A DNA stretch of 64,000 nucleotides from Nanobdellota archaeon (GTDB lineage: Archaea > Nanobdellota > Nanobdellia > SCGC-AAA011-G17 > PNOQ01), in contig JAHJUI010000005.1 of the NCBI GenBank assembly GCA_018829185.1, forward strand, positions 682 through 64,681, written 5' to 3'. The position numbers were made by a program, and so were the translations under genes. Positions 12,487 through 55,263 of the stretch are shown here, in pieces. Under the pieces are notes generated by a model. It worked only from the letters and a program-made list of their open reading frames with translations. It did not search any database and was not told where the DNA came from. Each line of letters starts with the position of its first letter. The stretch's first letter is position 1.

Positions 12487-12729
12487 TTATAAAAGCTTTG
12501 AATGACCAAAGTGAATAAGCAAATCTATGTTTTTTACATTTGGAATGTCGCAAGCACCATAGTTTGAGCCAAACCAAATAAGAATTTTTGCTTTTGTGTT
12601 TTTTTCTAAGTATTTTGCAATAAAAGTAGCTTTTGGTTTTAAACCTGCAGGTAATTGTATTAAAACGGTTTTAGGTTTTTCTTTGTTTATTTTTTCTGCT
12701 ACTTCTTTTAGCTCTAGTTCGAATTCCAT
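12487..12729 (-). pseudogene. dph2: N-terminal fragment of diphthamide synthase Dph2 (2-(3-amino-3-carboxypropyl)histidine synthase)
   Basis: KTVLIQLPAGLK ... NYGACD ... LLIHFGHS match conserved Dph2 N-terminal blocks. The ORF stops after 80 aa (full length is about 330 aa). Downstream space is occupied by the RHH cassette. Confidence 0.5.
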
Positions 12730-12763: not shown

Positions 12764-14419
12764 CTATATTTGTAGAGGTTGAGGTATTGCTGAAAAAAGT
12801 TTCTTTAATGGATTCCTTAATATCCTAAATGTTCTTGTTTCACTTTCAGCTGTATTTGGTACATAGGTTCCATTGTGTGCATAATAATCTGCATCTTCAT
12901 TAAAAGCATAATCACTGCATTTTATTGACCAAGAGTGTAATCCCGGGGCTAATCCATTTACATAAAATTCTAAAATAATGTCTTTTGCTGGGTTTACCAC
13001 GCCTTGTGTTGTGTCTCCATCCAAGGTTAAATTACACTCTCCTATGTCTGAAGCATCTGAAACCATGAATTGAAATTCTTTTGATGTTGCTCTAAATACC
13101 CCACTTTGTCTTGGTTCTATTAATGTTATTTCTGGAGGTAATCTATCAATCGTAAATTCTGCTAGGATTGTTTCGTTAATGTTTATAAAATAAAACTTTG
13201 TGATTTCATCAGATATTACATCTACACGAGTTCTTCCGTAACCTGTAAAAGCGTAGTCATATGGCCAACTGAAGGAGAGAGGATAGCCTGCATTTCCTGC
13301 TTCTATGTAATGCACTTTGTCCACTACAATATCTGTGAATAAATGATCGTGTCCGTGAAAAAAGGCTTGAACTCCATAATCTTGCATCATTTGGTGAACT
13401 ATTGCTTGCTCTCCAGAGTATGCTGCCATTCCTCCTCCCCGACCATAACCTTGCCAAATCCAAGTTGGCCAATAACCACCAACGGTGTGATGAATCATTA
13501 TAAATTTCCAAGGTTCTGTTGCATTTTGTAATGTACTATTTAACCAATTTAATTGAGTTTCTCCAAGTGTCCAAGTTTCATCAGTATGATTTGAAAATGG
13601 ATCTGTTTCAGTGTAGCTCATTACATTTAATACTATGAATAAAGCATTCCCCCATGTGAAAGCATAATAATCCTCATTAGCACTTCCACTTTCTGAATAA
13701 GTTGTATCTAATGGATTTGAGAAATACTTTTTCCTTAAATTTATTGCTACTTCTACATCTTCTTGAGCTTCCCAGCCTGGCTCTCCTTCCCAGTTTCCTA
13801 CTGTAAAGAATGCTGGTATATTCAATGAGGTTAAAGCATTTCTAAATATTTCATATTCTTGTATTGCTTCAGATTCATTTGTGATTATGCTTGATCCGTT
13901 TGTTGCTATTTGAATATTATCTCCCAAGAAAAAAGATAAATCTGAATTATCGTTTAGGGACATTCCTTCTATAATTGTACTTAATCTAATTGCATTATCT
14001 GGGAATCCTAGATCTATATGGGAATCTGTGAATAATGTAAAACTAAATGGCCCGTTTCTTTTTGTTCTAAATGTTTTTTCTATTGAAGAAGAATATTCTG
14101 TTTCACTTTGTAATTTTGCTTTTAAAATATAATAATATTGTGTATTTTCATTTAAATTTTCTATATCAAACTCTAAAAGTTCATTGGGGTTTATATTTTG
14201 TACTTCTGTTGAATTTGTATAATTTCCAGGAAGAATTCCATATTCAATGTATGCTGAAATTGGATCTGGCCCATTGATTAAATTTATTGTGATTGAATTT
14301 TCTGTTGGCCTTCCAAGTAAATCTAAGGAAGTGAAATCTGGAAAAGCATTAGCTAAATTTATAGAGAATACTAAGAATAATACTATAATCACACTCTTTT
14401 TCATGAAATTGAGCACCAT
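12764..14419 (-). CDS. secreted calcineurin-like metallophosphoesterase (purple-acid-phosphatase-like) with N-terminal FN3-like region
   Basis: Signal peptide. Motifs FTDSHID, FLGDNIQ, GNWEGEPGW, IHHTVGGYW, GHDHLFTD give the metallophosphatase signature. Confidence 0.6.
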   Translation of the reverse strand: MVLNFMKKSVIIVLFLVFSINLANAFPDFTSLDLLGRPTENSITINLINGPDPISAYIEYGILPGNYTNSTEVQNINPNELLEFDIENLNENTQYYYILKAKLQSETEYSSSIEKTFRTKRNGPFSFTLFTDSHIDLGFPDNAIRLSTIIEGMSLNDNSDLSFFLGDNIQIATNGSSIITNESEAIQEYEIFRNALTSLNIPAFFTVGNWEGEPGWEAQEDVEVAINLRKKYFSNPLDTTYSESGSANEDYYAFTWGNALFIVLNVMSYTETDPFSNHTDETWTLGETQLNWLNSTLQNATEPWKFIMIHHTVGGYWPTWIWQGYGRGGGMAAYSGEQAIVHQMMQDYGVQAFFHGHDHLFTDIVVDKVHYIEAGNAGYPLSFSWPYDYAFTGYGRTRVDVISDEITKFYFININETILAEFTIDRLPPEITLIEPRQSGVFRATSKEFQFMVSDASDIGECNLTLDGDTTQGVVNPAKDIILEFYVNGLAPGLHSWSIKCSDYAFNEDADYYAHNGTYVPNTAESETRTFRILRNPLKKLFSAIPQPLQI

Positions 14420-14451
14420 AATTTGTTTATATATTTTTCTTTGTTATAAAA

Positions 14452-17400
14452 CTACTTTTTCTTTTTGTGGTAATGTCCGTGTCCAATTGATTTTATTGCA
14501 AAAAAAGTACCTAAGGCTATTATCCCTATTAATATTACTAATCCTATTAGACCAAATGTTTTTAGATTTTTATTTAATTGAATCCCTTCTCTTAATTCTG
14601 GACTTAATCTTGGTTCTATTTTTTCTAATTTTGCAGTTATTATTCCTTCTGTTTCTGAAAATGTTATTAAAACATCAGAATATCCATCTTCATTTATATC
14701 TACTTTTCTTTCTTCTGTGTTTTCTATTATTATTTCTAATGTTATTTCATCCCAAATAAATTTGATTGTGTCTCCTAACTCTAATTCTATTTCTCTTATT
14801 TCTAAGTAATCGTAATCTACTAAAAATGAATTTGGTCCTTCTTCAGATTCTGGGGGGGGTGTCTCTCCTCCTTGTACTCCTGATCCGCTTGTTGAAGTTC
14901 CTGCTGTTGCAGTAGGAGTTTCTCCTGCAGTGTAAATACTGAAAGAGGTTACATTAAATATAAAATTGTTATTTGTATATGAAACTTCTGTGCAGTCTGA
15001 ACAAACTGCTCCATCTTTCAAAACTCTTGGGTTTGTGAATGTTAAGTTATAAAGAGTTAATGTTGCTGTTGTGTTTAGTTCAGGTAATGCTGTAGAATTA
15101 ACTTCTATTCTGTTTTGACTTATGTTCACATTATTATCTAAATTTGTCCCATTTGATAAATCTACATTTGTTGTGAAATTTATCATTCCTAAACTTGGGA
15201 CTTCCATTATTAGATTTGATATGTTTGATACATTTACTTGAGATAGATCTGTTGTGTTTCCCGAGAATTCTGAATTAGTTATAACTGAAAATGTTCTTAA
15301 TCCTGTTGTATTCATGTTTGGTGTGTAGTTTCCTCCATGGAATGTGTAGTTTACTACGTAATTTGTATTAAAGTTGTAGTCAGTGCAATTTATGAACCAA
15401 GCGTAGTTCCCTGCTGCCAAATTATTTATTGTGAAGTTTGTATTTAGGTCTTTTACCATGCTCGTATTTGATTGATTTATTGCATTATTAAAAAAGAATG
15501 TGCAGTTTTCTATTGTAGATGCGTCTGTTACGTTGAAAATGAAAGTTATATTTCCATCTGTGTCTCCTGAGTCATTTGATGGGGAAACTATATTTATTCT
15601 TGGTGGCATTCTATCTATTGTTACGTTTGCACTGGATAACTCTTCTTCTGTTATGTAGTATACTTTTGTTATCTCATCTGAGAGGACTTCTACCTTTGCA
15701 CGTCCTTTACTATCATTGTAATAACTTCCGTATCCTGCTGTAAATGCTAAGCCATATCCTGCGTTTCCCACTACTATATAATGTGTTTTGTTCTCTATCA
15801 TATCTGTAAATAAGTGATCATGTCCAAGGAACATTATCCTTACATCATTGTCTACCATCATTTGTTGTATTGTTGCTTGTTCTCCAGAATATGCTGCTCT
15901 TCCTCCTCCACGACCGTATTTTGTCCATGCTGCAGCTGCTGCTCCTGTCCAATTTCCTCCGGCTGTGTGATGAATTATTACAAATTTCCATGGTTCTGTT
16001 GCATTTTTTAATGTATTATTAAACCAGGTTAATTGAGTAGAACCTAATGTCCAGTTTTCCATGCTATTATCTGATGGATTTACAGGAGTGTAGCTCATTA
16101 CATTTAAAACAATAAATAAAGCATTCCCCCATGTGAAAGCATAGTAATCTTCATAATCTCCTCCGCCCTGAACGTAAGTTGTATTAGTTGGATTGGGTAC
16201 GAATTTTTGCCTTATACTTCTTGCTAATGATAAGTTTGTAGAATCTATCCAACCCGGTTCTCCTTCCCAATTACCAATTGCCATTAAAAAAGGAATTGAA
16301 TTATAATCTGGATGTAATGATTCTCTTAAAAGTACATATTCTGAAGTTGCCCATGTTTCATTATTAATAGCCCCATCTCCCACTCCTGGTTGTATATTGT
16401 CCCCTAAGGACATAACAAAATCTGAATTATCATTTAAAGACATATTTGCTAAAATCTTTTTTAAATCTGCTGAAGTTTCTGGCCAAGTGGGATCTACATG
16501 CATATCTGATATTAATGTAAAATTAAATGGATATGATGCTCTTCTTGTTCTAAAAGATCTTTCATCTGTTGTTGCATATGTTGATTCATCTAATCTTTTA
16601 GACCTTACACGATAATAATAAACTGTGTTTGTTGTTAATCCAGTTATATCAAATTCTATTAATGTGTCATTTGTTACATTTTGAACTGTTGTTGTATCTG
16701 AATAACTTCCTGCAGCTCCAGAAGTTGATCCATATTCTACGTACGTTGAGGAGTTTTCATGGCCGTTAATTAAATTTATAGTTATTGAGGTATTTGAAAC
16801 TTTTCCCATTAAATCCATGGAAGTCATATTTGGGAAAACAGATTTATAATCAAGAGTTACATTATATAATTCTGGGGTATAAGATATATTGTCTGTTTCG
16901 AAATCAAATTTATATTGGAAATATCTATTACTTGCAATTGATAATTGTTGAGGTGTTGCATCATCTACTGAAGTAAAGCTTTCTCCGCTGCAAACGCTGT
17001 CATCGCAGGATTGTACAGAAAGATTTAATTTTAATGCTCCTCTTTTGTAATGGTTTAGGATTTCTGCTGCTGTTAAAGATCTATTGTATATTGCTACTTC
17101 ATCCATTGTAGCATTTGGTGCAAATTGATTTGTTATTGTTCCTATTGTTATGTTGTTTGTGCTAGCTGCTAGGTTTCCTGTATGGGTTGTGCTGTTTTCA
17201 AAGACTCCATCAACATATAATAGCATATCTGAGCTATTGTAAACTGCAGCAATATGGTGCCAATTTGTATCATTAAAAGTTGATGCTGTATCAATTGTTT
17301 TCCCTGTACCTGTTTTTATCCCAAATCTTATATGTTGGTTATTGGCTATGCCAATTACGTGCCAAATAATACCAAGAACAAATGAAGTAGTTCCTTCCCT

Positions 17401-17997
17401 TACAAAAACTTCTGAGGTGGATGCATCTCCAAAGTTTCCAGTATTTCTTCTCTTGAACCAAAATTCTACTGAAAGTGTGTCTCCTACATCAAAATCAGTT
17501 GTTCCAGTCATTTGAATTGCTGTTGCTGTTGTTCTGTTAAACATTACCCCTTGACCTAGCTTTCCTGGTTGGTTATAATGAACTTCTCCAATGATATTTC
17601 CTGTGTTACTATGGCCTGAAGAATCTATGAATTGTCCTGATGTTTCGTTTAAGTGCATTAGTAAAATGTTTCCTGTCATGTTTGCTCCGCCAAGAACTGT
17701 TTCTACTGCTTCATTTGCGGGAAGATCTTCTCCATAAGGAACTCCTTCTATCCAAGTTAGGTTATTCCATGTTGTATTTTCTGCTCCATCAAAAACTTTA
17801 GAAGTATAATTTCCTGTTAGATTCCCTGCACTTAATTGAACAAAACCAGATACATTGTATTCAGTGTTTGAGTAAGTCCCATTGTTAAAATCCCCTTGCG
17901 TTATAACTGTAAATAAATCTGCAAAACCAAATTGTATAAATGAAAATAATATAATTGTAAATACTAAAATCAGAAGATATTTTCCCCTCTTTTTCAT
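14452..17997 (-). CDS. large surface protein: LamG/ConA-like domain + calcineurin-like metallophosphoesterase + C-terminal TM anchor
   Basis: Signal peptide. LamG_3-like block (...ATMDEVAIYNRSLTAAEILNHY). Phosphoesterase motifs (ISDMHVDP, SLGDNIQ, IGNWEGEPGW, IIHHTAGGNW, LGHDHLFTD). C-terminal TM helix plus HGHYHKKKK. Very dense N-x-S/T sequons. Paralogous to 12764..14419. Confidence 0.6.
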   Translation of the reverse strand: MKKRGKYLLILVFTIILFSFIQFGFADLFTVITQGDFNNGTYSNTEYNVSGFVQLSAGNLTGNYTSKVFDGAENTTWNNLTWIEGVPYGEDLPANEAVETVLGGANMTGNILLMHLNETSGQFIDSSGHSNTGNIIGEVHYNQPGKLGQGVMFNRTTATAIQMTGTTDFDVGDTLSVEFWFKRRNTGNFGDASTSEVFVREGTTSFVLGIIWHVIGIANNQHIRFGIKTGTGKTIDTASTFNDTNWHHIAAVYNSSDMLLYVDGVFENSTTHTGNLAASTNNITIGTITNQFAPNATMDEVAIYNRSLTAAEILNHYKRGALKLNLSVQSCDDSVCSGESFTSVDDATPQQLSIASNRYFQYKFDFETDNISYTPELYNVTLDYKSVFPNMTSMDLMGKVSNTSITINLINGHENSSTYVEYGSTSGAAGSYSDTTTVQNVTNDTLIEFDITGLTTNTVYYYRVRSKRLDESTYATTDERSFRTRRASYPFNFTLISDMHVDPTWPETSADLKKILANMSLNDNSDFVMSLGDNIQPGVGDGAINNETWATSEYVLLRESLHPDYNSIPFLMAIGNWEGEPGWIDSTNLSLARSIRQKFVPNPTNTTYVQGGGDYEDYYAFTWGNALFIVLNVMSYTPVNPSDNSMENWTLGSTQLTWFNNTLKNATEPWKFVIIHHTAGGNWTGAAAAAWTKYGRGGGRAAYSGEQATIQQMMVDNDVRIMFLGHDHLFTDMIENKTHYIVVGNAGYGLAFTAGYGSYYNDSKGRAKVEVLSDEITKVYYITEEELSSANVTIDRMPPRINIVSPSNDSGDTDGNITFIFNVTDASTIENCTFFFNNAINQSNTSMVKDLNTNFTINNLAAGNYAWFINCTDYNFNTNYVVNYTFHGGNYTPNMNTTGLRTFSVITNSEFSGNTTDLSQVNVSNISNLIMEVPSLGMINFTTNVDLSNGTNLDNNVNISQNRIEVNSTALPELNTTATLTLYNLTFTNPRVLKDGAVCSDCTEVSYTNNNFIFNVTSFSIYTAGETPTATAGTSTSGSGVQGGETPPPESEEGPNSFLVDYDYLEIREIELELGDTIKFIWDEITLEIIIENTEERKVDINEDGYSDVLITFSETEGIITAKLEKIEPRLSPELREGIQLNKNLKTFGLIGLVILIGIIALGTFFAIKSIGHGHYHKKKK

Positions 17998-18048: not shown

Positions 18049-20199
18049 TTACTTATATCTTAGTTTTTTAAAAAATTCTGTTTTTAATAAAATTGTAAAG
18101 ATTATCCCAATTATAAGGGCTATTATTAGGATAATTACTGGCACTAATGCTTTGTTTAAAGGTATTTCGTTATTTATTTCTTCTCTTTCATTATCTTGTT
18201 CTTTTACTTCTTCTTCTGTTACTTCTTTTTCTACTTCTACTTTTATTTCTGGGCTATATGTTTCTATTGATATTGTTGCTTCTCTTCCTTCTATTTTTTC
18301 TAATGTGATGGTTATTTCTTTTTCTCCATCAAAGTCTATGTCTATGTCTTCTTTATCTCCTATGTAGAGTCTTAATTCTATTTTTTCTGAATAGATTTCA
18401 AAATCTACATAGTTTTTGTCTATTTTTTTAACGTAAATATTGTGTGTTTGACCATTTAGGATTAATCTTATTCTGCCATTTGAGTTTAATGTGTAGTTTT
18501 TATCTTCTCCACGAAATACTTGTTGAGGATTTGGAATTGAGCTGCTTGGAGTATGAACTACTGGAATAACTGGGGAAATACTAATTGTGTGCTCTGAACC
18601 TAAAGTTAAAACAAAATCTAATTGCCCTTCTGATTGTGTAAATGTGCAGTTTGCAGTATTGCAATTTATTCCATCATAGGTTGCAGAATAAGTTGTAGCA
18701 TTATTTGACATCTGAACAGTTATGTTTGTTGTTCCAGTTCCGTCTAAAACTATGCTTGCATATCTTGAATCTCCCACTGTTGATGTTGAAGATAATAAAT
18801 TTATATTATTATTTGTAATGTTTTTTATTTCTGGATCTGATGTAAAAAGATATGTTAAATTAAGGTAACTAGGATTAGATACATTTGTTTTCAAGAATGG
18901 ATCATCCCCCCCCAATTTAAATGAAAGCCAATACCATTCTGTTCTATTATAAATCCAATAACCTAAATTTATTCTTTCATTTGTCCATTCGTATTGTGTT
19001 GTGTTAGATATGGATTTACCATAATCTGCTAATTTGGACCAAGTTGCATGTTTTTGAAAGCCCACATAATTTCTATCATCTGTTGTTAAGTTGTACCAAA
19101 AAGACATATTTACATTTACTATTCTTGAAATGCCAGTTATGCTCTCTGATATATTATCTATTGCCAATTGAACCCAAATAGCGCAAGTACAAAAATTCTC
19201 ACCGCTAGTTGGGGCTTCAAATTTGATTGCTTTTGAATCTTCTCCGTAAGTTGAAGGTTGTCCATGACTGGGATATTGTCCTGGCCTAAAATAATAATTT
19301 AAAGTAGATTGGTTTCCTAAGTAAAATCTTTGTTTTATTATATTATTTTTGTTATCTGTGACATTTAATACAATAGAATATAATCCTTGTCTTGAGGCTG
19401 TAAAGTTTATTGTTATCTTATTTCCAGACGTGCTATAAGAAACAGTTTCATTTGGATCTGTTTCAACAGAGTTAACTGTATAAGTATTGATAGCTGTTTC
19501 ATTTGGATACATTATATAAACATCAAAAATTGTTTCTTGATTCGGAAATAATGTTCTGTTATCTTCAGGATTAAACATTATATTTACTTCGCTTAAAAAC
19601 TGGTTATTAGTATAATTATTACTTATATAATTATCAAATATAGAATTTACGTTATTAGAAAAAATATTATCTGCTATATTGTTTAATACAGCTGGACTTC
19701 TTCCTCCAGCATGTAAAAAAATACCTACTATGTTTGAATTAATTGTGTTGTTTGTTATAGGGTTATTAACCGAAAAGACAGAGTTAATCCCATTATGTAC
19801 ATTATAAGAAATTGAGTTATTATGGATGGTTCCATTGTCTGCATTTTTTAAGTGAATTCCCATACCAAATCCAGTTATATTGCAATTCCTAATGGTTATA
19901 TTGTCATAACCTAATGCATTGTCAATACCAAAATCATCTATAACTATCCCTGCTCCAAAATCTGCTAATGTACTGTCTCCAACTATGTTAAAGCCATTAC
20001 AATCTAATACTAAATTATGGGCTCCAATATTGACCCCATCTGCTGTACAACCGGTTAAACTATTTGACATTGTCCAACTAGAAGTTAAAGTGTCTGCACA
20101 ATTACATGATGTTGCTCCTCCGCAGTTTGCTGCATTCACTGAGTAAACAGATACTAAAAATGATATTAATAAAATAAAAAATACTCTCCTCTTTTCCAT
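18049..20199 (-). CDS. secreted right-handed beta-helix (pectate-lyase-fold) surface protein with C-terminal TM anchor
   Basis: Signal peptide. Repeated NITIRNCNITGFGMGIHL / NNSISYN / NNTINSN beta-helix repeats. C-terminal TM plus KKLRYK. Many N-glycosylation sequons. Confidence 0.55.
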   Translation of the reverse strand: MEKRRVFFILLISFLVSVYSVNAANCGGATSCNCADTLTSSWTMSNSLTGCTADGVNIGAHNLVLDCNGFNIVGDSTLADFGAGIVIDDFGIDNALGYDNITIRNCNITGFGMGIHLKNADNGTIHNNSISYNVHNGINSVFSVNNPITNNTINSNIVGIFLHAGGRSPAVLNNIADNIFSNNVNSIFDNYISNNYTNNQFLSEVNIMFNPEDNRTLFPNQETIFDVYIMYPNETAINTYTVNSVETDPNETVSYSTSGNKITINFTASRQGLYSIVLNVTDNKNNIIKQRFYLGNQSTLNYYFRPGQYPSHGQPSTYGEDSKAIKFEAPTSGENFCTCAIWVQLAIDNISESITGISRIVNVNMSFWYNLTTDDRNYVGFQKHATWSKLADYGKSISNTTQYEWTNERINLGYWIYNRTEWYWLSFKLGGDDPFLKTNVSNPSYLNLTYLFTSDPEIKNITNNNINLLSSTSTVGDSRYASIVLDGTGTTNITVQMSNNATTYSATYDGINCNTANCTFTQSEGQLDFVLTLGSEHTISISPVIPVVHTPSSSIPNPQQVFRGEDKNYTLNSNGRIRLILNGQTHNIYVKKIDKNYVDFEIYSEKIELRLYIGDKEDIDIDFDGEKEITITLEKIEGREATISIETYSPEIKVEVEKEVTEEEVKEQDNEREEINNEIPLNKALVPVIILIIALIIGIIFTILLKTEFFKKLRYK

Positions 20200-20234: not shown

Positions 20235-21202
20235 CTAATCAAATAAGCTAGAAACAGACTCTCCACAATGAATTCTGCGTATTGCTTCTGCTAATAAGGG
20301 TGCTATAGAAACAGTTTTTATTTTCTTTATTTGTTTAAATTTTATTGAGTTTGTTACAATCACTTCTTCTATATCTGGGTCTTCCATTCTTTCAAATGCT
20401 GGGCCTGCAAAGTCTCCATGGGTGAATGAGAGGTATATTTTCTTTGCTCCACTTTGTTTTAATGTTTTTACTGCAGCTATTAAGGTTCCGCCAGTCATTA
20501 TCATGTCATCCATCATAATTACATCTTTTCCTCTTACATTTCCTAAAATAATTGCTTCTTGGACTTTGTCATGACCTTCTAATTCGTATGATCTTTTTTT
20601 ACTTATTATTACAAAGGGTAAATGTAGCTTTGAAGCTAGTTTTGAATTTATTTTTACTCCGCCTTCATCTGGTGCAACAACTACAAAATTTTTTAGATTC
20701 ATTCTTTGAAAATGTTTGGCTAAGATGGGCATTGCGTATAAATTATCGCAAGGAATATCAAAAAAACCTTGGATTTGGCTTGCATGTAAATCTAAAGTTA
20801 GAATTCTATCTGCTCCTGCTGCAGTTAATAAATTTGCTACTAATTTAGCTGTAATTGGTTCTCTAGAGGCTGCTTTTCTGTCTTGTTTTGAATAACCGTA
20901 CCAAGGCATTACAGCTGTGATTCTTCTTGCAGATGATCTTTTTAATGCGTAGATGATCTTTTTAATGCGTCAATCATGATTAAAAGTTCCATTAAAGTTT
21001 CATTTGCTGGATTAGAAGTTGATTGTATTATGAAAACATCTTTTTCCCTCATGTTTTCTTTTACCCTTACATATGTTTCTGAGTTTGCAAATTTGTCTAT
21101 TTCTACTTTTGTTAAAGGTATTCTTAGAATTTTAGATATTTCTTGTCCAAGCTCTGGGTTTGATGTGCCACAAGTTAACTTTATGTTGTTTCTGGTTATC
21201 AT
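20235..21202 (-). pseudogene. prs: ribose-phosphate pyrophosphokinase (PRPP synthetase) disrupted by a 20-bp tandem duplication
   Basis: Two ORFs (20942..21202 N-terminus, 20235..20909 C-terminus) together make a complete Prs. Removing one copy of AGATGATCTTTTTAATGCGT restores DALKRSSARRITAVMPWYGYSKQDRKA, the conserved Prs block. With the duplication the frame ends ...ALKRSSTH*. Confidence 0.75.
20931..20970. repeat. exact 20-bp tandem duplication (AGATGATCTTTTTAATGCGT x2) inside prs
   Basis: Directly visible in sequence. The length is not a multiple of 3, so it causes a frameshift. Confidence 0.9.
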
Positions 21203-39925: not shown

Positions 39926-41845
39926 TTATAAAGGTTTCTTCTTGAAAAAAGGGAATAGGAATCCTAGGTTAAATGCGTAAGCTGGTATTGATTTTAGGAT
40001 TGGTTTTTCTTTTCTATTTGCTGCTGCTTCACTTTCGTAGCAGGTTAATCCATCCCAATATTCGTTTTCATCATCTCCACAACAACCAAAATTATTTGGG
40101 GCAGAATATATAAATTCTCCTACTTCAAATCTTGGTTCGGATACATTATTTGTCCAGATGTAACCTGCCTCTTCACAAGTGTTTATTCCGGGTAATCCTG
40201 TATCTAGATCCCACCAACCGAATCCTATGCATCTTGCTTCGTGTTTTTCTCCTAATGGGCCGTCAATGTCAATCATTTGTGTTCCGTCTCCTTTGTAACA
40301 AGTTCCTTCGTATACACAATAGTTTGGCCAGTAACTTCCATTACAGTATGCGAAATCTGTTTCATTGTCTGCATAATCGCAACCCTCTGCTTGATTACAT
40401 GGGCCACCACCCATTTCATTATCATAATTTGTTCCATTTGTATCGTAGTAGTCTCCAAAGAAGAATTGTTGATAAGCTGAATCTGTTGTATCACAAGCAT
40501 CCCCTATTTCATCTCCATCTATATCTCCTTGTGCTGGGTTGTATGTGTAATCGCAATTGTCATATAAATCCCATATTCCATCTTCATCTGTGTCATCTGA
40601 TTCTATTGACCAGATTCCAAATGTAGCTAACTTACATTCCCCATAACCTACTTTAAAATATCCTCCGTCGGTACCATAATCATCCCCATAACTATTTTTT
40701 ACAATCCAAGTTTGATCTGCATCGTCCCATCCGATTATAATTATTGCGTGGTCCCAATCGCTCGGATTTGTACAGGTTAAAACATTGTCTTCCCCAAGGC
40801 TTCCACTAGACATATCTAGCTCAGAAGAAACTGGGCCCTTTTCCATTATTATTTGTTTTATTTCCCCCATTATCGGTTGATATATAAACTCCTTTGAGTC
40901 GAATGAAATCAATCTAGTTTCCCAATCCAAGCACAAATCCTCAGAACAGGAGGTATCACTACATACTCCAGTTGAATTATGTTCACAAATTGAATCGCAT
41001 GTGCCTCCACTACACCCGCACCCAGTTCCATCAACATAAAACATACATTCTTCATCTACTACACCAAAATCTTTAATGAAATCTATTGCATGGGGCAAGC
41101 TCCCCCCACAACAACCACTATTTTCTACTGTATGACAATCAGAAACCAATTGTTCTTCTGATAAATTTAAATCTAAGTTTGGATTCCCAGAACGAACATT
41201 ATACTCTGCTTCTGTCATTCCTATTGCTGAAAAAGCATAACAACTTCCACAGATTCCTTGATCTTTAACTGGGGTCATCCAATCTTCACCATTATAATCT
41301 CTCCAATCAAAATTAGCTGGCAAAGTTCTGGAACTTTTTACTGGTATATTGTCTTTTTTAATTTCTTCCAGTAAAGGCATTTCTCGTGAAGATTTAACTG
41401 ATTTATCGTTTAAATTAGTTAATTTTGTAACAGTTCCAATTTCTCTCCCAAATCGATTCACACAAACTGCATATTCTTGTGTAAACTCGTCTTTACCATC
41501 TGTTTTTATTTTTGTTTTATAGCCTTCTTTTGCACAATAATTATATTTTTGACCACATTTTCCTTGTAAGAATTCCCATCCCCCACATTGATTTCTTTTG
41601 TTGAAAACACAAATTCCATGTTGTCCTCCATCTTCTTCTGTAATGATTTTATAATCATAACCTAATTCAGTACAATAAACTGCTGCTGGATTTGCCATCC
41701 CTATCCCTTCTCCACCACAGGTTGAAACTTGTTTAGGTTGCAAGAAATTATTAGTTTTAAATAAATCTTCAAAACTAAATGCTGTAGTATTAAAACTCAT
41801 TAAAATCAATACTAAAATTACATAAAGTACTATTGCCTTTTTCAT
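39926..41845 (-). CDS. secreted papain-family (C1A) cysteine protease with Cys-rich and Ca-binding (TSP3-like) C-terminal region
   Basis: QGICGSCYAFSAIG (catalytic Cys box), HAIIIIGWD (His box), NSYGDDYGTDGGYF (Asn/Trp box). DxDxDGxxD repeats (DNCDYTYNPAQGDIDGDEIGDACD). Confidence 0.7.
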   Translation of the reverse strand: MKKAIVLYVILVLILMSFNTTAFSFEDLFKTNNFLQPKQVSTCGGEGIGMANPAAVYCTELGYDYKIITEEDGGQHGICVFNKRNQCGGWEFLQGKCGQKYNYCAKEGYKTKIKTDGKDEFTQEYAVCVNRFGREIGTVTKLTNLNDKSVKSSREMPLLEEIKKDNIPVKSSRTLPANFDWRDYNGEDWMTPVKDQGICGSCYAFSAIGMTEAEYNVRSGNPNLDLNLSEEQLVSDCHTVENSGCCGGSLPHAIDFIKDFGVVDEECMFYVDGTGCGCSGGTCDSICEHNSTGVCSDTSCSEDLCLDWETRLISFDSKEFIYQPIMGEIKQIIMEKGPVSSELDMSSGSLGEDNVLTCTNPSDWDHAIIIIGWDDADQTWIVKNSYGDDYGTDGGYFKVGYGECKLATFGIWSIESDDTDEDGIWDLYDNCDYTYNPAQGDIDGDEIGDACDTTDSAYQQFFFGDYYDTNGTNYDNEMGGGPCNQAEGCDYADNETDFAYCNGSYWPNYCVYEGTCYKGDGTQMIDIDGPLGEKHEARCIGFGWWDLDTGLPGINTCEEAGYIWTNNVSEPRFEVGEFIYSAPNNFGCCGDDENEYWDGLTCYESEAAANRKEKPILKSIPAYAFNLGFLFPFFKKKPL

Positions 41846-41881: not shown

Positions 41882-43438
41882 CTATTTCTTATTTTTCTTT
41901 CTTTTCTTTGGTTTTTTGTTAATTTTAACTTTTTTATTAGAATTATGTTGTGCTATGAAAAGTATTGTTGATATTCCTAAAATTACAACTACCCCGATTA
42001 TTACTACTTTAGATTCTGGAGATAATCTTGCTAATTTTCTAGCTTCTTGAATTGGAGTAAGACATTCTTTTTTGTTATCTTCATTACAAATTTGATTTTC
42101 TGGACATCCACAAATTTCACAGTCTCTTTCTAAATTTCCATTTTCTGTGCAGTAGAATGGTTTATCTTGTGAACAACTTTCAAATTCAGTGTGATAATCA
42201 TCTAAGCAAGTGTTAGTTTTTTCTGATTCTTTTTCTGATTGACGAACTGGGACGCAACATTTTAAATCTTCTCCCCAAAGATCAGAACAATCTGATTCTA
42301 AACCAGGATTATTTGAATTTATAAAGCCACTTGCGCATTCTGTTTCACAATAACCATCTGCACCATAACAAGAAAGTTCCATTATTTCTGTTTCTGTTTC
42401 ATTTTCTTCAAATTCAGATATGCAATACTCCTCAAAACAAGTATAATCTTCTGAACAAGGACATTCGCTGCATAAATTGGTTGCAATTCCAGATAAACAT
42501 TTGATTCCTCCTAAACAATTACCGTCTAAGACAAGGGGTAATCCCTGAGCAATATTAGTACAGTCTATTGTTTCTTCTAGTTTTAAAGGATCATTTGCAC
42601 AACCTGGATCTGCTAAATCTATTAATCCATCTCCATCGTTATCTGCTCCATCATTACATGCAGGCTCATCTGGATTTTCAATATAATTTGGACTGCAGCT
42701 TCCATCTTCTAAACAAAAACGACTATTTCCCCCAGTAGCATTTATACATCCCACATTAGTATCTCCCCCATCTTCACTAACTGGACTACAAGCTGTACAA
42801 CCTGTTTCCCCACATATTGGTGTTGTTCCACTGCAAGTACAATTATATGGTCCATCTGGATCACATCCAGGAACTAATTCCCACTCATCAGTACAAAACA
42901 TTCCAGGATAAATATCTGAACATTCATTTGAACTGGCACCCTCACCACACCCACTAATTGGGGGCGAGGCCTTTAAACATTCTCCAGTTAGTTTGTCACA
43001 ATACCCGTACTCTAATCCTCTTGCTTCAATACATTCTAAATTAGTTTCACATCCTCTGCATTCGTGAGGAACATTCACATTCTCACAATATGGTTCGTTA
43101 GAAGTTAAATCGCAAGGACAATCCCAACAACAATTAGATCTATCTTCTCCATTAGTACAAACATTGTCTCCACATTCGCTAGGTACACAACATTGTTTTT
43201 GATTGTATGGGGGAGAAATATCCCCTGGGCAATCAAGGATTCCTTTTGTATATTCTGAAGAACCACAGCTAAATTTACATGTTCCTCCAAAACCAGAACA
43301 AGTTGTAACTGCATTTCCAGTTACTAAATTAAAATCTAAATTGTTTATCCAGTCAATGAATGAAAATGCACTAACCGAAGTAGCTACAAAGGATACTAGG
43401 ATTATTAAAAATATTGATATCACAACTCTTTTTTTCAT
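41882..43438 (-). CDS. Cys-rich surface protein with C-terminal TM anchor and poly-basic tail
   Basis: Signal peptide. More than 50 Cys. DNDGDGLIDLADPGC Ca-binding-like repeat. TM plus KKVKINKKPKKRKKNKK. Confidence 0.5.
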   Translation of the reverse strand: MKKRVVISIFLIILVSFVATSVSAFSFIDWINNLDFNLVTGNAVTTCSGFGGTCKFSCGSSEYTKGILDCPGDISPPYNQKQCCVPSECGDNVCTNGEDRSNCCWDCPCDLTSNEPYCENVNVPHECRGCETNLECIEARGLEYGYCDKLTGECLKASPPISGCGEGASSNECSDIYPGMFCTDEWELVPGCDPDGPYNCTCSGTTPICGETGCTACSPVSEDGGDTNVGCINATGGNSRFCLEDGSCSPNYIENPDEPACNDGADNDGDGLIDLADPGCANDPLKLEETIDCTNIAQGLPLVLDGNCLGGIKCLSGIATNLCSECPCSEDYTCFEEYCISEFEENETETEIMELSCYGADGYCETECASGFINSNNPGLESDCSDLWGEDLKCCVPVRQSEKESEKTNTCLDDYHTEFESCSQDKPFYCTENGNLERDCEICGCPENQICNEDNKKECLTPIQEARKLARLSPESKVVIIGVVVILGISTILFIAQHNSNKKVKINKKPKKRKKNKK

Positions 43439-46002: not shown

Positions 46003-48093
46003 ATGCTGAATTTTAATAAATACTGGAGATTACCTTTAGTTATTGGTTTGGCTACTAGTTTAATTGGTTGTGGTAAACAGAATCCTATTCCTCCTGTTAT
46101 TCCTGTTATTCCTGATTTGCCCGTTGTTACTGAAGAAATAAATGCTGCACAGGGTGGTGTGATTGAAACAGGTACTTATGAAACAGGTATTTATAAGGTT
46201 GAGTTTCCCCCAAATTCTTTGTCACAAGATACAACTGTTGAGATTGGTGCTCCTGATGAAATTCCAAATTATCCTGTTTCGGAAAATTTAGAGCAAGCAA
46301 GTTCTTTTTTAGATATAAATCTTGGTTCTGCTTCTTTGGTTGATACTTGTTATATTTATATTCCTTATTCTGGTTTTGATAATGATAATCCACCTATGCC
46401 TTTTTTGTTTAATAGTAGTGGAAATCCTTTTGATATAGCAAGACCTTCTTCTGAAGATGAACATGTTAAAATAAATTATTTTAATGCAAGAAGGGATGGC
46501 GACTGGATTGCTGGTTTGTTTGATTTTATTGATTATGTTCAAGTGCCTAAGTTAACATTTCCAGATGGCTTTGATTTTAATTCTAGTGATCCTGTTATTT
46601 TACTAGTTCATGGGCAAGGTGGTAGTGCAGAAACATTTAATGAGCTAAATGATCCTCAGCCAACAATGTACGAATTTCTTAAGGAGGGTTATAATGGTAG
46701 AATTGGGACATGGGAATATCCTAGTATATTATCTGTTGATGTTACTGGTTTTGTGTTAGAAGATAAAATTGCTGAGTTAGAAGCCGAGCATGGAACATTT
46801 CCTTTTAAATTTGATGTTGTTACTCACAGCAGGGGTGGTTTAGATATAAGGTATTTTGTTAGAAATGGAAATGCTGATAAGGTAAATAAGGTTGTTTTTC
46901 TTGGAACACCGAATAATGGAACAACAATTGAGGCAGCTGGATATCATTTATTATTCCCCCCTGAAAGGAGTATTGATGATTGGTTTAATCCTTGGTCTTC
47001 AGGATTTTTGGATTGTTTAACTGGAAGTTCATTTTTAAATTCAATAAACACTTCTACTAGTGAAGAATTTAATGTTGATTATTACCCTATTGCTGGTAGC
47101 ATTTCAAATGATAATCCTTGTATTCCTGGAGAAGATGATCATTTAGTTGGTGTTGCTTCTGTTGATTTACATAATTTTCCTCATGAAAATGTTAGATTAC
47201 ATTCTTTAAATGAGATAGATTTGAGTCATGGAAGGTTGGTTGAGAATAGGAGGGATTTATTTATACATTTAGAAGATATTCTTAATCTAGATAATCCTTC
47301 TTTAAACGGGTTTGTAGTTTTTAGTGCTTTTGGAGTAATTATTTATTATCTCGATACTGGCGAAACAGAAAGATTAGGGGGGCAGGGGTATACCAAACCT
47401 GGTATTTCAAGAGATGGGGAAAAAATTTCTTTTAGTAAGATGTTGGGGGAGCCCACGATTCATATTATGAATGATATTATTCCTGGTGGAGAAATGATCC
47501 CGATAACACCCGGAGCCGGTCCTAGTTGGTCTCCTGACGGGAATGAACTTGCTTATATGTATGATGGAGATATTTGGATTGTTAATGTCAATACACTTAA
47601 TAAAAGAAATTTGACCAATTCTCCATCTTCTGTAGAATTATATCCAGATTGGTCTCCGTTAGGAGATAAAATTGCATTTAATTCTGATAGAGATGGTATA
47701 CTAAGTATTTATACTATTCCTGTTGATGGAGGAATTTGGACACGACTAACCTCTTCCCCCTGGCCTACTAAGTATCCAAGTTGGTCTCCTGACGGGAATG
47801 AACTTGTTTTTTACACTCATGTTGGTGGTGGTGGTAAAGTAGAAATATTCAAAATGAATAGTGATGGGACTAATAACAATAGGTTAGTATATTCTTCAAC
47901 AAATTACACAACAGATTACCCTTCTTGGTCTTATCCAAATGGAGATTGGATTTGTTTTAGACAACATCGGACTAATTATCCCGATATAGGAAAAATATAT
48001 TATGTAGATAGTGAAATTGGTGGTTTCCCCATTAGATTAACTCCTGACTTTTCGAGTGCAGATCAAGTTTTTTCTAGTTGGTATTGCGAATGA
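46003..48093 (+). CDS. lipoprotein-like alpha/beta-hydrolase (lipase/PGAP1-like) fused to TolB-like PD40 beta-propeller repeats
   Basis: Signal peptide with LIGCG lipobox-like Cys. VTHSRGG (GxSxG-type nucleophile elbow). Repeated WSPDGNELAY / WSPLGDKIAFNSDRDG PD40 motifs. Confidence 0.5.
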   Translation: MLNFNKYWRLPLVIGLATSLIGCGKQNPIPPVIPVIPDLPVVTEEINAAQGGVIETGTYETGIYKVEFPPNSLSQDTTVEIGAPDEIPNYPVSENLEQASSFLDINLGSASLVDTCYIYIPYSGFDNDNPPMPFLFNSSGNPFDIARPSSEDEHVKINYFNARRDGDWIAGLFDFIDYVQVPKLTFPDGFDFNSSDPVILLVHGQGGSAETFNELNDPQPTMYEFLKEGYNGRIGTWEYPSILSVDVTGFVLEDKIAELEAEHGTFPFKFDVVTHSRGGLDIRYFVRNGNADKVNKVVFLGTPNNGTTIEAAGYHLLFPPERSIDDWFNPWSSGFLDCLTGSSFLNSINTSTSEEFNVDYYPIAGSISNDNPCIPGEDDHLVGVASVDLHNFPHENVRLHSLNEIDLSHGRLVENRRDLFIHLEDILNLDNPSLNGFVVFSAFGVIIYYLDTGETERLGGQGYTKPGISRDGEKISFSKMLGEPTIHIMNDIIPGGEMIPITPGAGPSWSPDGNELAYMYDGDIWIVNVNTLNKRNLTNSPSSVELYPDWSPLGDKIAFNSDRDGILSIYTIPVDGGIWTRLTSSPWPTKYPSWSPDGNELVFYTHVGGGGKVEIFKMNSDGTNNNRLVYSSTNYTTDYPSWSYPNGDWICFRQHRTNYPDIGKIYYVDSEIGGFPIRLTPDFSSADQVFSSWYCE

Positions 48094-53028: not shown

Positions 53029-53483
53029 ATTACTATGATGAAATATCTTCTGGCTATAATGAACTTCACAAAGAAGAGCAATTAAAGAAGATTAAGATTA
53101 TTATTAAAGAATTAAACATAACTAATGAAATGGTTTTAGATGTTGGCTGTGGGACTGCTTTTTATTCTGATTTATTTAAAGATTATACTGGGATAGATAA
53201 TAGTGAAGGAATGTTAGAAAAAGCTAATTCTAATGTTATTTTGGGAAATGCAGAAGAATTACCGTTTGAAGATGATTCTTTTGATATTGTTATTTCTGTT
53301 ACTGCTTTACATAATGTTAAGGGTTTTAAAAAGGCTATAAAAGAAATGGAAAGGGTTTCTAAAGGAAAGATTGCTATTTCTGTTTTAAAGAAAAGTAAAC
53401 ATTTTGATGAAATTAAAAAAGAATTAAAAGATTATAAACAAATTGAGGAAGAAAAAGATATTATCTTTATTAATCAAACATAG
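53025..53483 (+). CDS. class I SAM-dependent methyltransferase
   Basis: VLDVGCGTAFYS (motif I), followed by an acidic motif II and an ISV... motif. 152 aa. Confidence 0.7.
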   Translation: MNYYDEISSGYNELHKEEQLKKIKIIIKELNITNEMVLDVGCGTAFYSDLFKDYTGIDNSEGMLEKANSNVILGNAEELPFEDDSFDIVISVTALHNVKGFKKAIKEMERVSKGKIAISVLKKSKHFDEIKKELKDYKQIEEEKDIIFINQT

Positions 53484-55263
53484 AAAATACGCCTTTATTG
53501 TCATTGTCTTTTTTTGGTTCTTCTTTTTTATCTTCTAAAATAATTGTTCTTTCTTTTCGGGGTAATGGTTTATCAAATTCTTCTACTTCTTTGTTTGATT
53601 CTGATGCTAAATGAAGTAAATATTTTATTTGTTCATTTCTTGACATTGGTGAAAATTTTTTCTCTGGCTCCGCTACTTTTGATTTAAATATTGTTGTTTT
53701 TGCTCCATCTTTGATTATTGGTTTTACATCAAATGATTTTTCTTCTGTTTTAATTCCTTGAGTTTCAATATCTTTTAAAATTCTTGCTTTGAAATCCCTT
53801 ATATCTTCATCTGTTGCTTTTCCAAATCTTATTTTAGACTTAAGTTTGGTCTTCATTTCTGTTTTTCTCTTTTCTCCAAGCCGTCTCTCTCTATCTTTAA
53901 CTCTCTCTGTTTTCTTTATTCCTTTAAATTTGTAGTAAAAGAAAACTCCAAATATACCAACTATAACAATCAAAAATATCCATGATGAATTGGTCCTTGA
54001 TGATCCTGAAGCTCTAACTGCGCTACCGGTTGTAGCTGTAAAAAAATCTCCAAAACGATTAATTGCGCTTCTTGCATCTGTAATTTCTATTCCATTTAAT
54101 GTTTCTTCAGTGTTTAATATTCTTAAATCATAAATCCCAGATCTTGCTTCTTTGAAAAGTTCCACATTCATTGATTCTCCGGGTCTTAATTTTGTAATTT
54201 TTTTAACTATTGAGCTATAATCTCCGCTGTTTAGTTCAATTTCTAAATCTTCTGTATAATCTAGATTTCCTATATTTTTTATTTCAAGAACTTGATTTGT
54301 TAAAGTGATAAGTAAATCTTCAACCCCCTCCACTGTAAATTTTGTTTCTTGTGTAAATCCCTCTGATTTTGAAATAATTGTCCAATCTCCTGGGAGAGCG
54401 TATTCATCTAATTCAAACTCTATTTCTTCTCCAGTTTCAGCAATCTTTTCAGAATATATTTTCCCCTTTGGATTTTTTATTGTTATGTCTATTTTTTCTT
54501 CAATTGGATCTCCTGCCTGATCATACAAAAATGGAATTATTATGACCGTTTCTCCTGGCAAAAATGAAGTTATACTTAATGAATTTTCTAAGCTTGTTGG
54601 TTTTGGTATGATCTCTAGAGAAATTGTTTCGGAACCACGGTTTCCAAAATTATCTTGAACTTGTAACAATAATGTGTGTTCTCCAGATTTTATTTGTTCT
54701 GGAACTAAAATTTCATATTCAAATTTGTTTTTTGTGATATCCAGCATATATGTTTTTCCATAAAGTTCATATCTTGCTTCTGCTTCTTCAATGTCTCCGC
54801 CAAATGGTTTTTCTAATGTGCTTTTTATTGCAATTGTTTGACCTGGTTTGTATCGTTCTCTGTTTAATGTTGATGTCAATGTCAGTTCAGAATCAACTCT
54901 TAATGAATCTATGTTGTCGAAAGTTACTGTGTTTCCATATCCATCATTATACGTTACTGAAATGGTATATTTTCCCGCAGGCATTGGTTCATTATCTGGA
55001 TTTAATGCTAGCATGGTTTCAACAGAAAATTTTCCATTTACTAAAGTAGAAGCAGCATTATATTCTGCATTTTCATTTTTGAAGTTTACAAGAACAAAAC
55101 CTATTTCTATTGGTTGTTCATTGTCTGATAATTCTCCTGAAAAAATGAATGAATCTCCAAGTTCTATCTTTTCTTTATTGATATTAAACGTTCCTTCGAT
55201 TGCTGCTTGAGCTCTAAATGGTATAAATAAAAACAAAAGTAATAATATCATCACCTTTTTCAT
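53470..55263 (-). CDS. surface protein: signal peptide, Ig-like/beta-sandwich ectodomain, TM helix, long charged cytoplasmic tail
   Basis: N-terminal signal peptide. Internal TM helix (SWIFLIVIVGIFGVFFYY). Lys/Glu-rich C-terminal ~170 aa. Confidence 0.5.
   Translation of the reverse strand: MKKVMILLLLFLFIPFRAQAAIEGTFNINKEKIELGDSFIFSGELSDNEQPIEIGFVLVNFKNENAEYNAASTLVNGKFSVETMLALNPDNEPMPAGKYTISVTYNDGYGNTVTFDNIDSLRVDSELTLTSTLNRERYKPGQTIAIKSTLEKPFGGDIEEAEARYELYGKTYMLDITKNKFEYEILVPEQIKSGEHTLLLQVQDNFGNRGSETISLEIIPKPTSLENSLSITSFLPGETVIIIPFLYDQAGDPIEEKIDITIKNPKGKIYSEKIAETGEEIEFELDEYALPGDWTIISKSEGFTQETKFTVEGVEDLLITLTNQVLEIKNIGNLDYTEDLEIELNSGDYSSIVKKITKLRPGESMNVELFKEARSGIYDLRILNTEETLNGIEITDARSAINRFGDFFTATTGSAVRASGSSRTNSSWIFLIVIVGIFGVFFYYKFKGIKKTERVKDRERRLGEKRKTEMKTKLKSKIRFGKATDEDIRDFKARILKDIETQGIKTEEKSFDVKPIIKDGAKTTIFKSKVAEPEKKFSPMSRNEQIKYLLHLASESNKEVEEFDKPLPRKERTIILEDKKEEPKKDNDNKGVFSMFD

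Follow-up and report, generated by a model that had tools for sequence, protein, structure and literature searches.

Two adjacent genes for exported metallophosphoesterases, p1 and p2, lie in a 64,000-nucleotide stretch of DNA from a Nanobdellota archaeon (contig JAHJUI010000005.1 of assembly GCA_018829185.1, positions 682 to 64,681), hereafter called the window. Comparison with homologs from other genomes indicates that both proteins are best described as members of a separate, uncharacterised clade of the metallophosphoesterase superfamily, in which the metal ligands are kept, the histidine of motif III is replaced by tryptophan and an arginine is gained in a second loop. The pair probably acts, at the surface or after secretion, as phosphomono- or phosphodiesterases whose substrates are phosphoesters of the environment or of a host envelope, and the LamG head of p2 probably serves for glycan targeting. 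The more interesting leads are the exchange of active-site residues (GNW together with YGRGGG) and the recurrent fusion of a phosphoesterase to an archaeal pilin module, which was found in a third protein of the window, p3. Current views are not overturned by these observations, and the proteins are already deposited as 'metallophosphoesterase'. An exported clade that crosses phyla and combines a His to Trp swap with a gained invariant Arg offers a testable case of active-site rewiring.

The tandem pair and its active site

The short paralog p1 is an exported protein of 551 amino acids (aa) encoded at 12764..14419, as defined by its open reading frame (ORF), Pfam matches and an AlphaFold2 (AF2) model, and the long paralog p2 is a membrane-anchored, sequon-rich protein of 1181 aa encoded at 14452..17997, as defined by its ORF, Pfam and BLASTP against p1. 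Both genes, like all features of p1 to p4 given below, are on the minus strand. The two proteins are tandem paralogs, with 46% identity over 530 aa (BLASTP, E 2e-152). The original prediction, made from the letters and ORFs alone, had proposed tandem paralogous exported phosphoesterases, and this was borne out by the ORFs at these coordinates, by their identity and by the leaders present in both. Pfam Metallophos (PF00149) scored 40.3 bits on p1 and 44.9 bits on p2 (aa 492-728), and both proteins pass the gathering cut-off of 21.5 bits.

The p1/p2 family was aligned first with 32 and then with 117 homologs, and positions are given here in p1 numbering. In both alignments D132, H134, G166, D167, W210, H311, H357, D358 and H359 were invariant, and N209 and H310 were conserved at at least 90%. 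The metal ligands of p1 are D132, H134, D167, N209, H311, H357 and H359, accompanied by the family signature W210 and Y325-G-R327-G-G-G; those of p2 are D498, H500, D533, N576, H677, H726 and H728, accompanied by W577 and R696. All seven ligands of the five superfamily motifs (D-x-H, G-D, G-N-H-[DE], H and G-H-x-H) are present in both proteins, and the only departure is the non-ligand His of motif III, which is Trp. The metallophosphatase signature that had been read from the sequence (DSH/DMH, GDN, GNWE, HHT and GHDH) was recovered in full in both proteins. Loss of ligands on alignment had been named beforehand as the refuting observation; the ligands were found to be retained in p1 and p2 across the 117 homologs, and every archaeal copy of the family carries them.

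The tryptophan is a property of the whole family, whose signature is GNW[E]GE, and on this comparison GNWE in p1 and p2 does not appear to be a local lesion. In every member of the clade GNW occurs together with Y-G-R-G-G, whereas the outgroup, which consists of the ~950-aa proteins P0024, P0027 and P0107, has GNHE with Y-E-W-G-G. Further aromatic residues are invariant in the family, and the set comprises W210, W256, W283, Y189, Y325 and Y371. The His that follows the Asn ligand in GNH[DE] is a catalytic helper that is important in many metallophosphoesterases. As its loss is coupled to the appearance of an invariant Arg in a different loop, we infer that Arg327 of the YGRGGG loop may substitute for it. 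A literature search on the 'GNWE' motif returned nothing relevant. In this nearest outgroup, P0024 at least appears to have two phosphoesterase-type regions (Metallophos in two stretches) separated by a purple acid phosphatase (PAP) N-domain (Pur_ac_phosph_N, aa 538-618).

Neither purple acid phosphatases nor PhoD

The domain organisation of p1 resembles that of two well-known phosphatase groups. A signal peptide (aa 1-25, ...INLANA/FPD; 14345..14419) is indicated by a hydrophobic segment at aa 1-29, with the cleavage site placed by the A-x-A rule, and the p1-type leader is kept in the orthologs P0002-P0004. The leader is followed by a probable FN3-like N-terminal domain (aa ~33-118; 14066..14323), supported by model beta strands at 33-118 and by a sub-threshold Pur_ac_phosph_N match of 18 bits, by the metallophosphoesterase domain (aa ~124-425; 13145..14050; Pfam and alignments) and by a C-terminal Ig-like beta-sandwich (aa ~428-535; 12815..13138) with model strands at 430-533 of lower confidence. 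The model as a whole has a pLDDT of 86 and a pTM of 0.81. p1 has no membrane anchor. A deposited protein identical to p1, P0001 ('MAG: metallophosphoesterase [Nanoarchaeota archaeon]'), is 546 aa long, and for this reason the true start of p1 is probably M6, at window position 14404.

Over the N-terminal beta domain and the catalytic domain, the p1 model matches the plant PAP 3zk4 (E 6e-20) and Bacillus subtilis PhoD 2yeq (E 2e-18), at sequence identities of 14-16%. The PAPs (plant kbPAP, sweet potato PAP, lupin PPD1 and mammalian TRAP/ACP5) share with p1 and p2 a two-domain layout, in which an N-domain, probably FN3-like in p1 and p2 as well, stands in front of a metallophosphoesterase sandwich; they are the best fold matches of p1 (E 1e-17 to 6e-20) and also its best sequence-profile match, the family profile reaching a mammalian PAP among PDB sequences at E 2e-9. 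Single-sequence searches of the PDB sequences gave only matches at E about 0.1. Both groups have the bridging Asp and the Asn, as well as the motif IV His and GHxH, and PAPs are likewise secreted glycoproteins. In the profile alignment the PAP motif GDNFY stands over GDNIQ of the family, GNH over GNW, and GHDH over GHDH. PhoD resembles p1 and p2 in fold and domain order and in its extracytoplasmic location, and its Tat export recurs in a subset of the bacterial family members.

A tyrosinate-ligated Fe3+, with the motif GDxxY, defines both PAPs and PhoD; at the second metal, PAPs use a His2-Asp-Asn set, whereas PhoD has two Ca2+ with Asp and Asn ligands, and its Fe3+ is ligated by Tyr and Cys (PMC4223295). 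Across 40 sequences of the p1/p2 family the position of the PAP Tyr ligand is occupied by Q, A, D, M, H, S or F and never by Y. An assignment of p1 and p2 to the PAPs was rejected on this absence (GDNIQ against GDxxY) and on motif I, which is D-x-H in p1 and p2 and D-x-G in PAPs; GNW against GNH and an identity of 14-17% are further differences. The PAP N-domain model PF16656 scored 18.1 and 25.7 bits on p1 and p2, below its cut-off of 30, and the p1 model shows a beta-domain in this position. PhoD was rejected as well: PF09423 gave partial matches of 23.7 bits on p1 and 17.1 bits on p2, below the cut-off of 27, the Tyr ligand is missing, and the family keeps D-x-H and an ordinary His2-Asp-Asn site, unlike PhoD with its Tyr/Cys-ligated Fe3+ and two Ca2+. 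No curated model of NCBIfam matched the clade. The placement of p1 and p2 in a clade of their own was drawn because the architecture is PAP/PhoD-like yet the residue that defines both groups is absent.

Predicted surface display of the long paralog

The second paralog carries the same unit within a larger protein. The p2 signal peptide (aa 1-26, ...QFGFA/DLF; 17920..17997) lies on a hydrophobic segment at aa 5-33, with a putative cleavage site, and is kept in P0143 and in the ortholog at locus L001. The p2 leader begins MKKRG/KY... and resembles the first five residues of p3; it did not match the class III signal pattern and was treated as Sec-type. A LamG_3 (concanavalin-like) domain follows at aa 159-313 (17059..17523; Laminin_G_3, 81 bits against a cut-off of 27.6), and then come a probable FN3-like domain (aa 401-484; 16546..16797) that aligns to the N-domain of p1 and has a sub-threshold Pur_ac_phosph_N match of 25.7 bits, the metallophosphoesterase domain (aa ~492-795; 15613..16524; Pfam, BLASTP against p1 and alignment) and an Ig-like domain (aa ~799-905; 15283..15603; Big_7, 20.4 bits, sub-threshold) that aligns to the C-terminal domain of p1. 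The C-terminal extension (aa 906-1143; 14569..15282), delimited from its sequon positions, consists of a sequon-dense region, a T/S/G/P linker and a small acidic domain and had no significant Pfam match. Hydropathy places a transmembrane (TM) helix at aa 1144-1172, followed by the basic tail HGHYHKKKK (14455..14568). The LamG domain, dense sequons, C-terminal TM helix and basic tail that had been ascribed to the larger paralog were all recovered. A protein identical to p2 is present in the JGI metagenomes.

The number of N-x-S/T sequons in p2 is 56 (4.7 per 100 aa), compared with 22.0 +/- 4.0 in composition-preserving shuffles; across 42 other window ORFs the density is 0.55 per 100 aa. All five p2-type orthologs show the excess (z about 7 to 9), which is absent from p1-type, p3-type and bacterial homologs. 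Since it exceeds the shuffles, is kept in all p2-type orthologs and is limited to them, the sequon excess reflects selection on the anchored paralog, and composition does not account for it.

Both ends of p2 are shared with other surface proteins. The LamG domain, with aa 27-390, constitutes a 'head' module, and the first ~390 aa are 33-42% identical to more than 100 large DPANN proteins from Nanoarchaeota, Pacearchaeota, Woesearchaeota and Altiarchaeales whose downstream domains are quite different. This sharing agrees with the expansion of LamG-like proteins reported in DPANN (PMC5498576). The anchor format of TM helix and basic tail is found in the p2 orthologs P0143, P0144, P0145 and L005 and, within the window, in p4 (described below) and in the ORFs 61644..63806 and 41882..43438. 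These two ORFs, both on the minus strand, are large and without a Pfam match, and each starts with a hydrophobic leader and ends in a TM helix and a long tail rich in Lys and Arg. The combination of leader, C-terminal TM helix and Lys/Arg-rich tail seems to be the general surface-anchoring format of the organism. With a head common to DPANN proteins and a tail common to window ORFs, p2 would be a phosphoesterase placed in the standard surface-display chassis of its organism.

Distribution and origin

A scan of one genome per species, covering about 185,579 species, found the p1/p2 family in 192 genomes. Among the best 80 loci of these (L005-L084), 78 were bacterial, one was from Nanoarchaeota (L005) and one from an Aenigmatarchaeota single-cell genome (L023). 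The bacterial loci belong to Desulfobacterota, Myxococcota, Gemmatimonadota, Verrucomicrobiota, Mailhella and Methylomirabilota. The bacterial proteins are ~450 aa long and exported, many with Sec-type leaders and about 31 of 109 with a classic Tat motif; the archaeal proteins of p1/p2 type have Sec-type leaders.

In a simple neighbour-joining tree without support values, the Nanoarchaeota sequences formed one clade nested among bacterial ones and split into a p2-type branch (p2, L001-1265 and L005-1248) and a p1-type branch (p1, L001-539, P0003 and P0004). A related genome, GCA_043823355.1, has the same tandem pair with the same flanking genes, and the orthologs P0003 and P0143 lie together on one 12.8-kb contig. 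The duplication is older than the split from the related genome. The G+C content of the p1 and p2 genes is fully ameliorated; the window has ~30% G+C throughout, and p1, p2 and p4 do not stand out. The simplest reading is an old transfer, presumably from bacteria to Nanoarchaeota, after which a duplication within Nanoarchaeota would have given rise to the pair and one copy would have been elaborated.

Gene neighbourhoods

The archaeal pair is flanked by housekeeping genes (prs, a decarboxylase, deoxyhypusine synthase, PheRS, GlmS and a Dph2 fragment). The bacterial neighbourhoods have a different content: 27 of the 80 loci (15 of 40 among the long ones) have an arylsulfotransferase (ASST)-like gene (PF05935/PF14269) no more than 10 kb away, compared with a rough chance estimate of 1-2%, and the association is seen at loci L002, L003, L004 and L013. 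The neighbourhood often includes ComEA-like HHH_3 genes, FGE-sulfatase-domain genes, a ~965-aa ORF that Pfam does not match and a two-component system of the sigma-54 type. Genes for nucleotides or phosphate uptake are not what the bacterial members have as neighbours. At one bacterial locus, the genes after the metallophosphoesterase on its own strand encode a sensor kinase, a sigma-54 regulator and an ASST-like protein; another ASST-like gene, two HHH_3 genes and a 963-aa ORF without annotation are on the other strand. The metallophosphoesterase/ASST-like cluster is apparently a conserved and undescribed one, mainly of Desulfobacterota, within which most of the association falls. It hints that the ancestral role of the family was not that of a classic phosphate-starvation phosphatase, a hint that does not transfer to the archaea. 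The bacterial neighbourhood was considered as something carried over to the archaea and rejected; such genes are absent from the window and from the archaeal loci L001, L005 and L023.

Proposed function and alternatives

The catalytic activity of p1 and p2, the identity of the metals, the roles of Arg327 and Trp210, the glycosylation and the substrate are what we infer from the conserved residues and domain order, and they combine into the following mechanism. In p1, a first metal would be held by D132, H134, D167 and H359 and a second by D167, N209, H311 and H357. The two metals would activate water or hydroxide for attack on the phosphorus of an extracellular phosphomono- or phosphodiester. 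In place of the leaving-group-assisting His after Asn, which is replaced by the invariant Trp, the invariant Arg of YGRGGG would take over stabilisation of the phosphate or the leaving group. p1 would be released as a soluble enzyme, and p2 would be the same catalytic unit, heavily N-glycosylated and held on the cell surface by its C-terminal TM helix, with the LamG lectin-like head bringing it to glycan-bearing targets, for example the host envelope or detritus. With their minimal metabolism, DPANN archaea depend on other cells, and it is through surface proteins that this dependency is carried out. The phosphoesterases described here would serve it in three formats: a soluble one, a sequon-loaded and anchored one with a lectin head and, in a second family, a pilin fusion.

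Several points count against p1 and p2 being surface phosphoesterases that act on phosphoesters outside the cell. The clade contains no characterised member, and with Trp in place of the GNH His the enzymes could be poorly active or act on another class of substrate. The archaeal gene context is uninformative, ASST-like genes and a sigma-54 two-component system, and not phosphate-starvation genes, accompany the family in 27 of the 80 best loci, and the tree is of the simple kind described above. A literature search on Nanoarchaeota surface metallophosphoesterases returned nothing relevant.

The original prediction had favoured nucleotide scavenging by surface phosphoesterases or nucleases, in line with broken prs and dcd genes. 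Under this explanation the proteins would be surface nucleases or nucleotidases that degrade extracellular DNA, RNA or nucleotides for salvage, in an organism unable to make phosphoribosyl pyrophosphate (PRPP) or nucleotides. DPANN archaea are generally auxotrophic, and prs, which encodes ribose-phosphate pyrophosphokinase, is indeed interrupted in the window (20235..21200, minus strand): a perfect 20-bp tandem duplication (acgcattaaaaagatcatct x2, at about 20931..20970) shifts its frame, as the claim of a broken prs had held. The top fold neighbour of p1, 3zk4, is a diphosphonucleotide phosphatase/phosphodiesterase, PhoD is a phosphodiesterase, and the nearest folds of p3 include the cyclic-nucleotide phosphodiesterase Rv0805. 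However, the structural neighbours are phosphomono- and diesterases, and no nuclease-type family or fold was among the matches; no match of the Mre11/SbcD type or to any other nuclease was found in Pfam, NCBIfam, the 50 best Foldseek matches or the profile search of PDB sequences. Both halves of prs can be aligned well with the intact gene of GCA_043823355.1, which encodes 316 aa; the lesion, a single recent 20-bp duplication, reflects a very young pseudogene or else an error of assembly. Because GCA_043823355.1 keeps the same tandem pair together with an intact prs, the pair is not tied to the loss of prs. The bacterial members belong to free-living Desulfobacterota, Myxococcota and similar groups, presumably with full nucleotide biosynthesis, and no nucleoside transporter or salvage gene is adjacent to the pair. 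As for dcd, it was not among the window ORFs scanned with Pfam. With no nuclease family or fold matched and with neighbourhoods that are not nucleotide-related, the nuclease and scavenging part of the original prediction was not sustained; surface nucleases or nucleotidases are an unlikely explanation, and nucleotide scavenging is a possible special case of the preferred phosphoesterase reading to which a similarly low probability is given.

The same motif III change from His to Trp could also mean that the domain has become a pseudo-enzyme that binds a phosphorylated or glycan ligand, p2 then being essentially an adhesin or an S-layer-like glycoprotein. The LamG head, Ig-like domains, anchor and sequon loading of p2 are typical of surface and adhesion proteins, and Vps29, a weak match in the PDB-sequence profile search, is a precedent for a non-catalytic metallophosphoesterase fold. 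This is improbable: a metal-ligand set, HH and GHDH that are conserved across phyla are what one would expect of catalysis and not of a scaffold, adhesion domains are absent from p1 and from the ~450-aa bacterial proteins, and Tat export, used by about 31 of 109 bacterial members, is typical of enzymes loaded with a cofactor. More improbable still is a different chemistry, in which the GNW/YGRGGG clade would act, with ASST-like proteins, on a non-phosphate ester such as an aryl sulfate or a carbohydrate sulfate, or on a phosphorylated aromatic compound, a specificity retained by the archaeal copies. The 27 of 80 loci with an ASST-like gene within 10 kb, the recurrence of HHH_3 and FGE-sulfatase-domain genes nearby and the many invariant aromatic residues of the family would fit such a chemistry, but no ASST-like, HHH_3 or FGE-like gene is present in the window or in the three archaeal loci, and the association is mostly limited to Desulfobacterota. 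We know of no sulfatase with a metallophosphoesterase fold, and a literature search on a link between arylsulfotransferases and metallophosphoesterases returned nothing relevant that would connect the two families.

A phosphoesterase fused to a pilin module

The third protein, p3 (696 aa; 58049..60139), is a modular type IV pilin-like protein with a LamG domain and a divergent phosphoesterase domain, as recognised with Pfam, NCBIfam and the AF2 model. Its pilin module (59690..60139; TIGR02537 and AF2) comprises a class III signal, MKKRG/ISPLIATVLLIG..., with a putative cleavage site, a helix at aa 8-52 and a beta-sandwich at aa 56-150. The LamG_3 domain spans aa 209-364 (59048..59515; Pfam, 82.4 bits against a cut-off of 27.6) and the metallophosphoesterase domain aa 375-696 (58052..59017; Metallophos, motif table and model). 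Metallophos scored 20.7 bits on the whole protein and 23.6 bits on the isolated domain, with the cut-off at 21.5.

p3 had been taken for a third member of the p1/p2 group. Its LamG_3 and Metallophos domains were confirmed, whereas its membership was not, and the pilin signal had been missed. BLASTP between p3 and p2 aligned only the LamG domains (26% identity, E 1e-7), and the catalytic domain is related to the p1/p2 family at profile level only (hhalign probability 91%, 20% identity). Its motif residues are D386, H388, D460, H498-D499, H569, H613 and H615, with His496 at the canonical position of the Asn ligand, so that six of the seven metal ligands are present and one is not conserved. An exhaustive HMMER search of 1.84 billion clusters found 57 representatives of the p3 family, of which 29 reach E <= 1e-10. 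Their alignment shows little or no variation in D-x-H, GD, H-D, H and GHxH, and motif III reads G-A-x-x-H-D with a variable residue at the Asn ligand position; distant members have the canonical GN-HD. These comparisons suggest that p3 belongs to a separate, rare phosphoesterase family, a remote superfamily relative of p1 and p2.

The AF2 model of p3 has a pLDDT of 79, above 90 in the catalytic domain and 50-89 in the pilin region. The best folds for the catalytic domain were GpdQ 3d03 (E 2e-9) and Rv0805 2hy1 (TM-score 0.74 on the target), and not PAP or PhoD. The glycerophosphodiesterase GpdQ and the cyclic-nucleotide phosphodiesterase Rv0805 retain, like p3, D-x-H, GD, HD, H and GHxH; they differ in being free-standing and in having the Asn ligand, whereas p3 has His496 and is fused to pilin and LamG modules, and the identity is about 15%.

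The N-terminus of p3 scored 39.3 bits with TIGR02537 (cut-off 20), with weak matches to Pilin_N and UpsA, and p3 is the only ORF of the window that matches the class III signal pattern. The model predicts a 45-residue helix followed by a beta-sandwich; the pilin module matches the archaeal flagellin 8fk7, and the N-terminal half of the model matches Streptococcus sanguinis PilC 7oa8. Modular type IV pilins such as S. sanguinis PilB, with a vWA module, and PilC, with a concanavalin-like lectin, share with p3 the class III signal, the pilin helix with beta-sandwich and the grafted modules; these are bacterial, whereas p3 is archaeal and carries two modules, of which the second is a phosphoesterase. 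LamG_3 (PF13385) is among the modules grafted onto bacterial pilins, and (predicted) peptidases are the only enzymatic modules named there (PMC8179133). Class III signals on archaeal proteins other than pilins are established for the substrate-binding proteins of the 'bindosome', and a preprint on the archaeal type IV filament (TFF) superfamily is without mention of enzymes.

The ~150-aa pilin module of p3 is reused in the Nanoarchaeota proteins P0123-P0126 with different C-terminal parts, including cysteine-rich acidic repeat regions, which suggests a modular pilin family with swappable cargo in Nanoarchaeota. Class III signals also occur elsewhere in the p3 family: P0268 reaches the TIGR02537 cut-off, two members match PF04021, and P0280 and P0269 look similar by eye. 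Genes for a prepilin peptidase, ATPase or platform protein were seen neither among the scanned ORFs of the 64-kb window nor beside p3. A tentative and rather doubtful proposal sees p3 and related proteins as modular type IV pilins of archaea, with a LamG-guided phosphodiesterase at the tip of a pilus-like filament. If true, a DPANN cell could cut phosphodiester-linked components of the host envelope or of polymers at a distance with an enzyme on a filament, and if p3 is incorporated into filaments, the idea of the modular pilin would be extended to archaea and to phosphoesterase modules.

A possible parallel was noticed in the p1/p2 family. The 1056-aa homolog of the Aenigmatarchaeota single-cell genome AM-311-K14 (L023 8969..12139, plus strand) begins MKGITPIIAIILLLV..., which resembles a class III pilin signal; TIGR02537 scored 15.8 bits, below the cut-off of 20, and the resemblance is a hint. 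A genuine signal here would mean that a second DPANN phylum has joined a pilin leader to a phosphoesterase, this time one of the GNW family.

Locus layout and other exported proteins

Upstream of the pair lies p4 (18049..20199), a 716-aa beta-helix (NosD-like) surface protein defined by its ORF, Pfam and hydropathy. It has a signal peptide, a C-terminal TM helix, a basic tail and 24 sequons, compared with 14.4 +/- 3.3 expected. The genes p4, p2 and p1 are co-directional on the minus strand, with gaps of 51 nt (p4-p2) and 32 nt (p2-p1), and p4 is likely to be co-transcribed with p2. In the window p4 is placed between prs and p2; in GCA_043823355.1 it is not there, and a beta-helix protein is found ~10 kb off instead. 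A C-terminal module common to p2 and p4 was considered on a likeness seen by eye and dropped when BLASTP gave no significant match.

On the other side of the pair, an 80-aa ORF (12487..12729, minus strand) matches only the first ~57 of the 302 positions of the Diphthamide_syn (Dph2) profile. The same fragment lies directly downstream of the phosphoesterase pair in a related genome (L001 11655..11897), and it looks like a conserved truncated or split gene and not a random break.

Further exported proteins are encoded elsewhere in the window: a papain-family protease with DUF333 (39926..41845, minus strand), an MG2/Ig-domain protein (53470..55263, minus strand) and an alpha/beta-hydrolase-like protein with PD40 repeats and a lipoprotein-like leader (46003..48093, plus strand). 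The presence in the window of exported proteins with degradative or binding domains is consistent with an externally feeding lifestyle.

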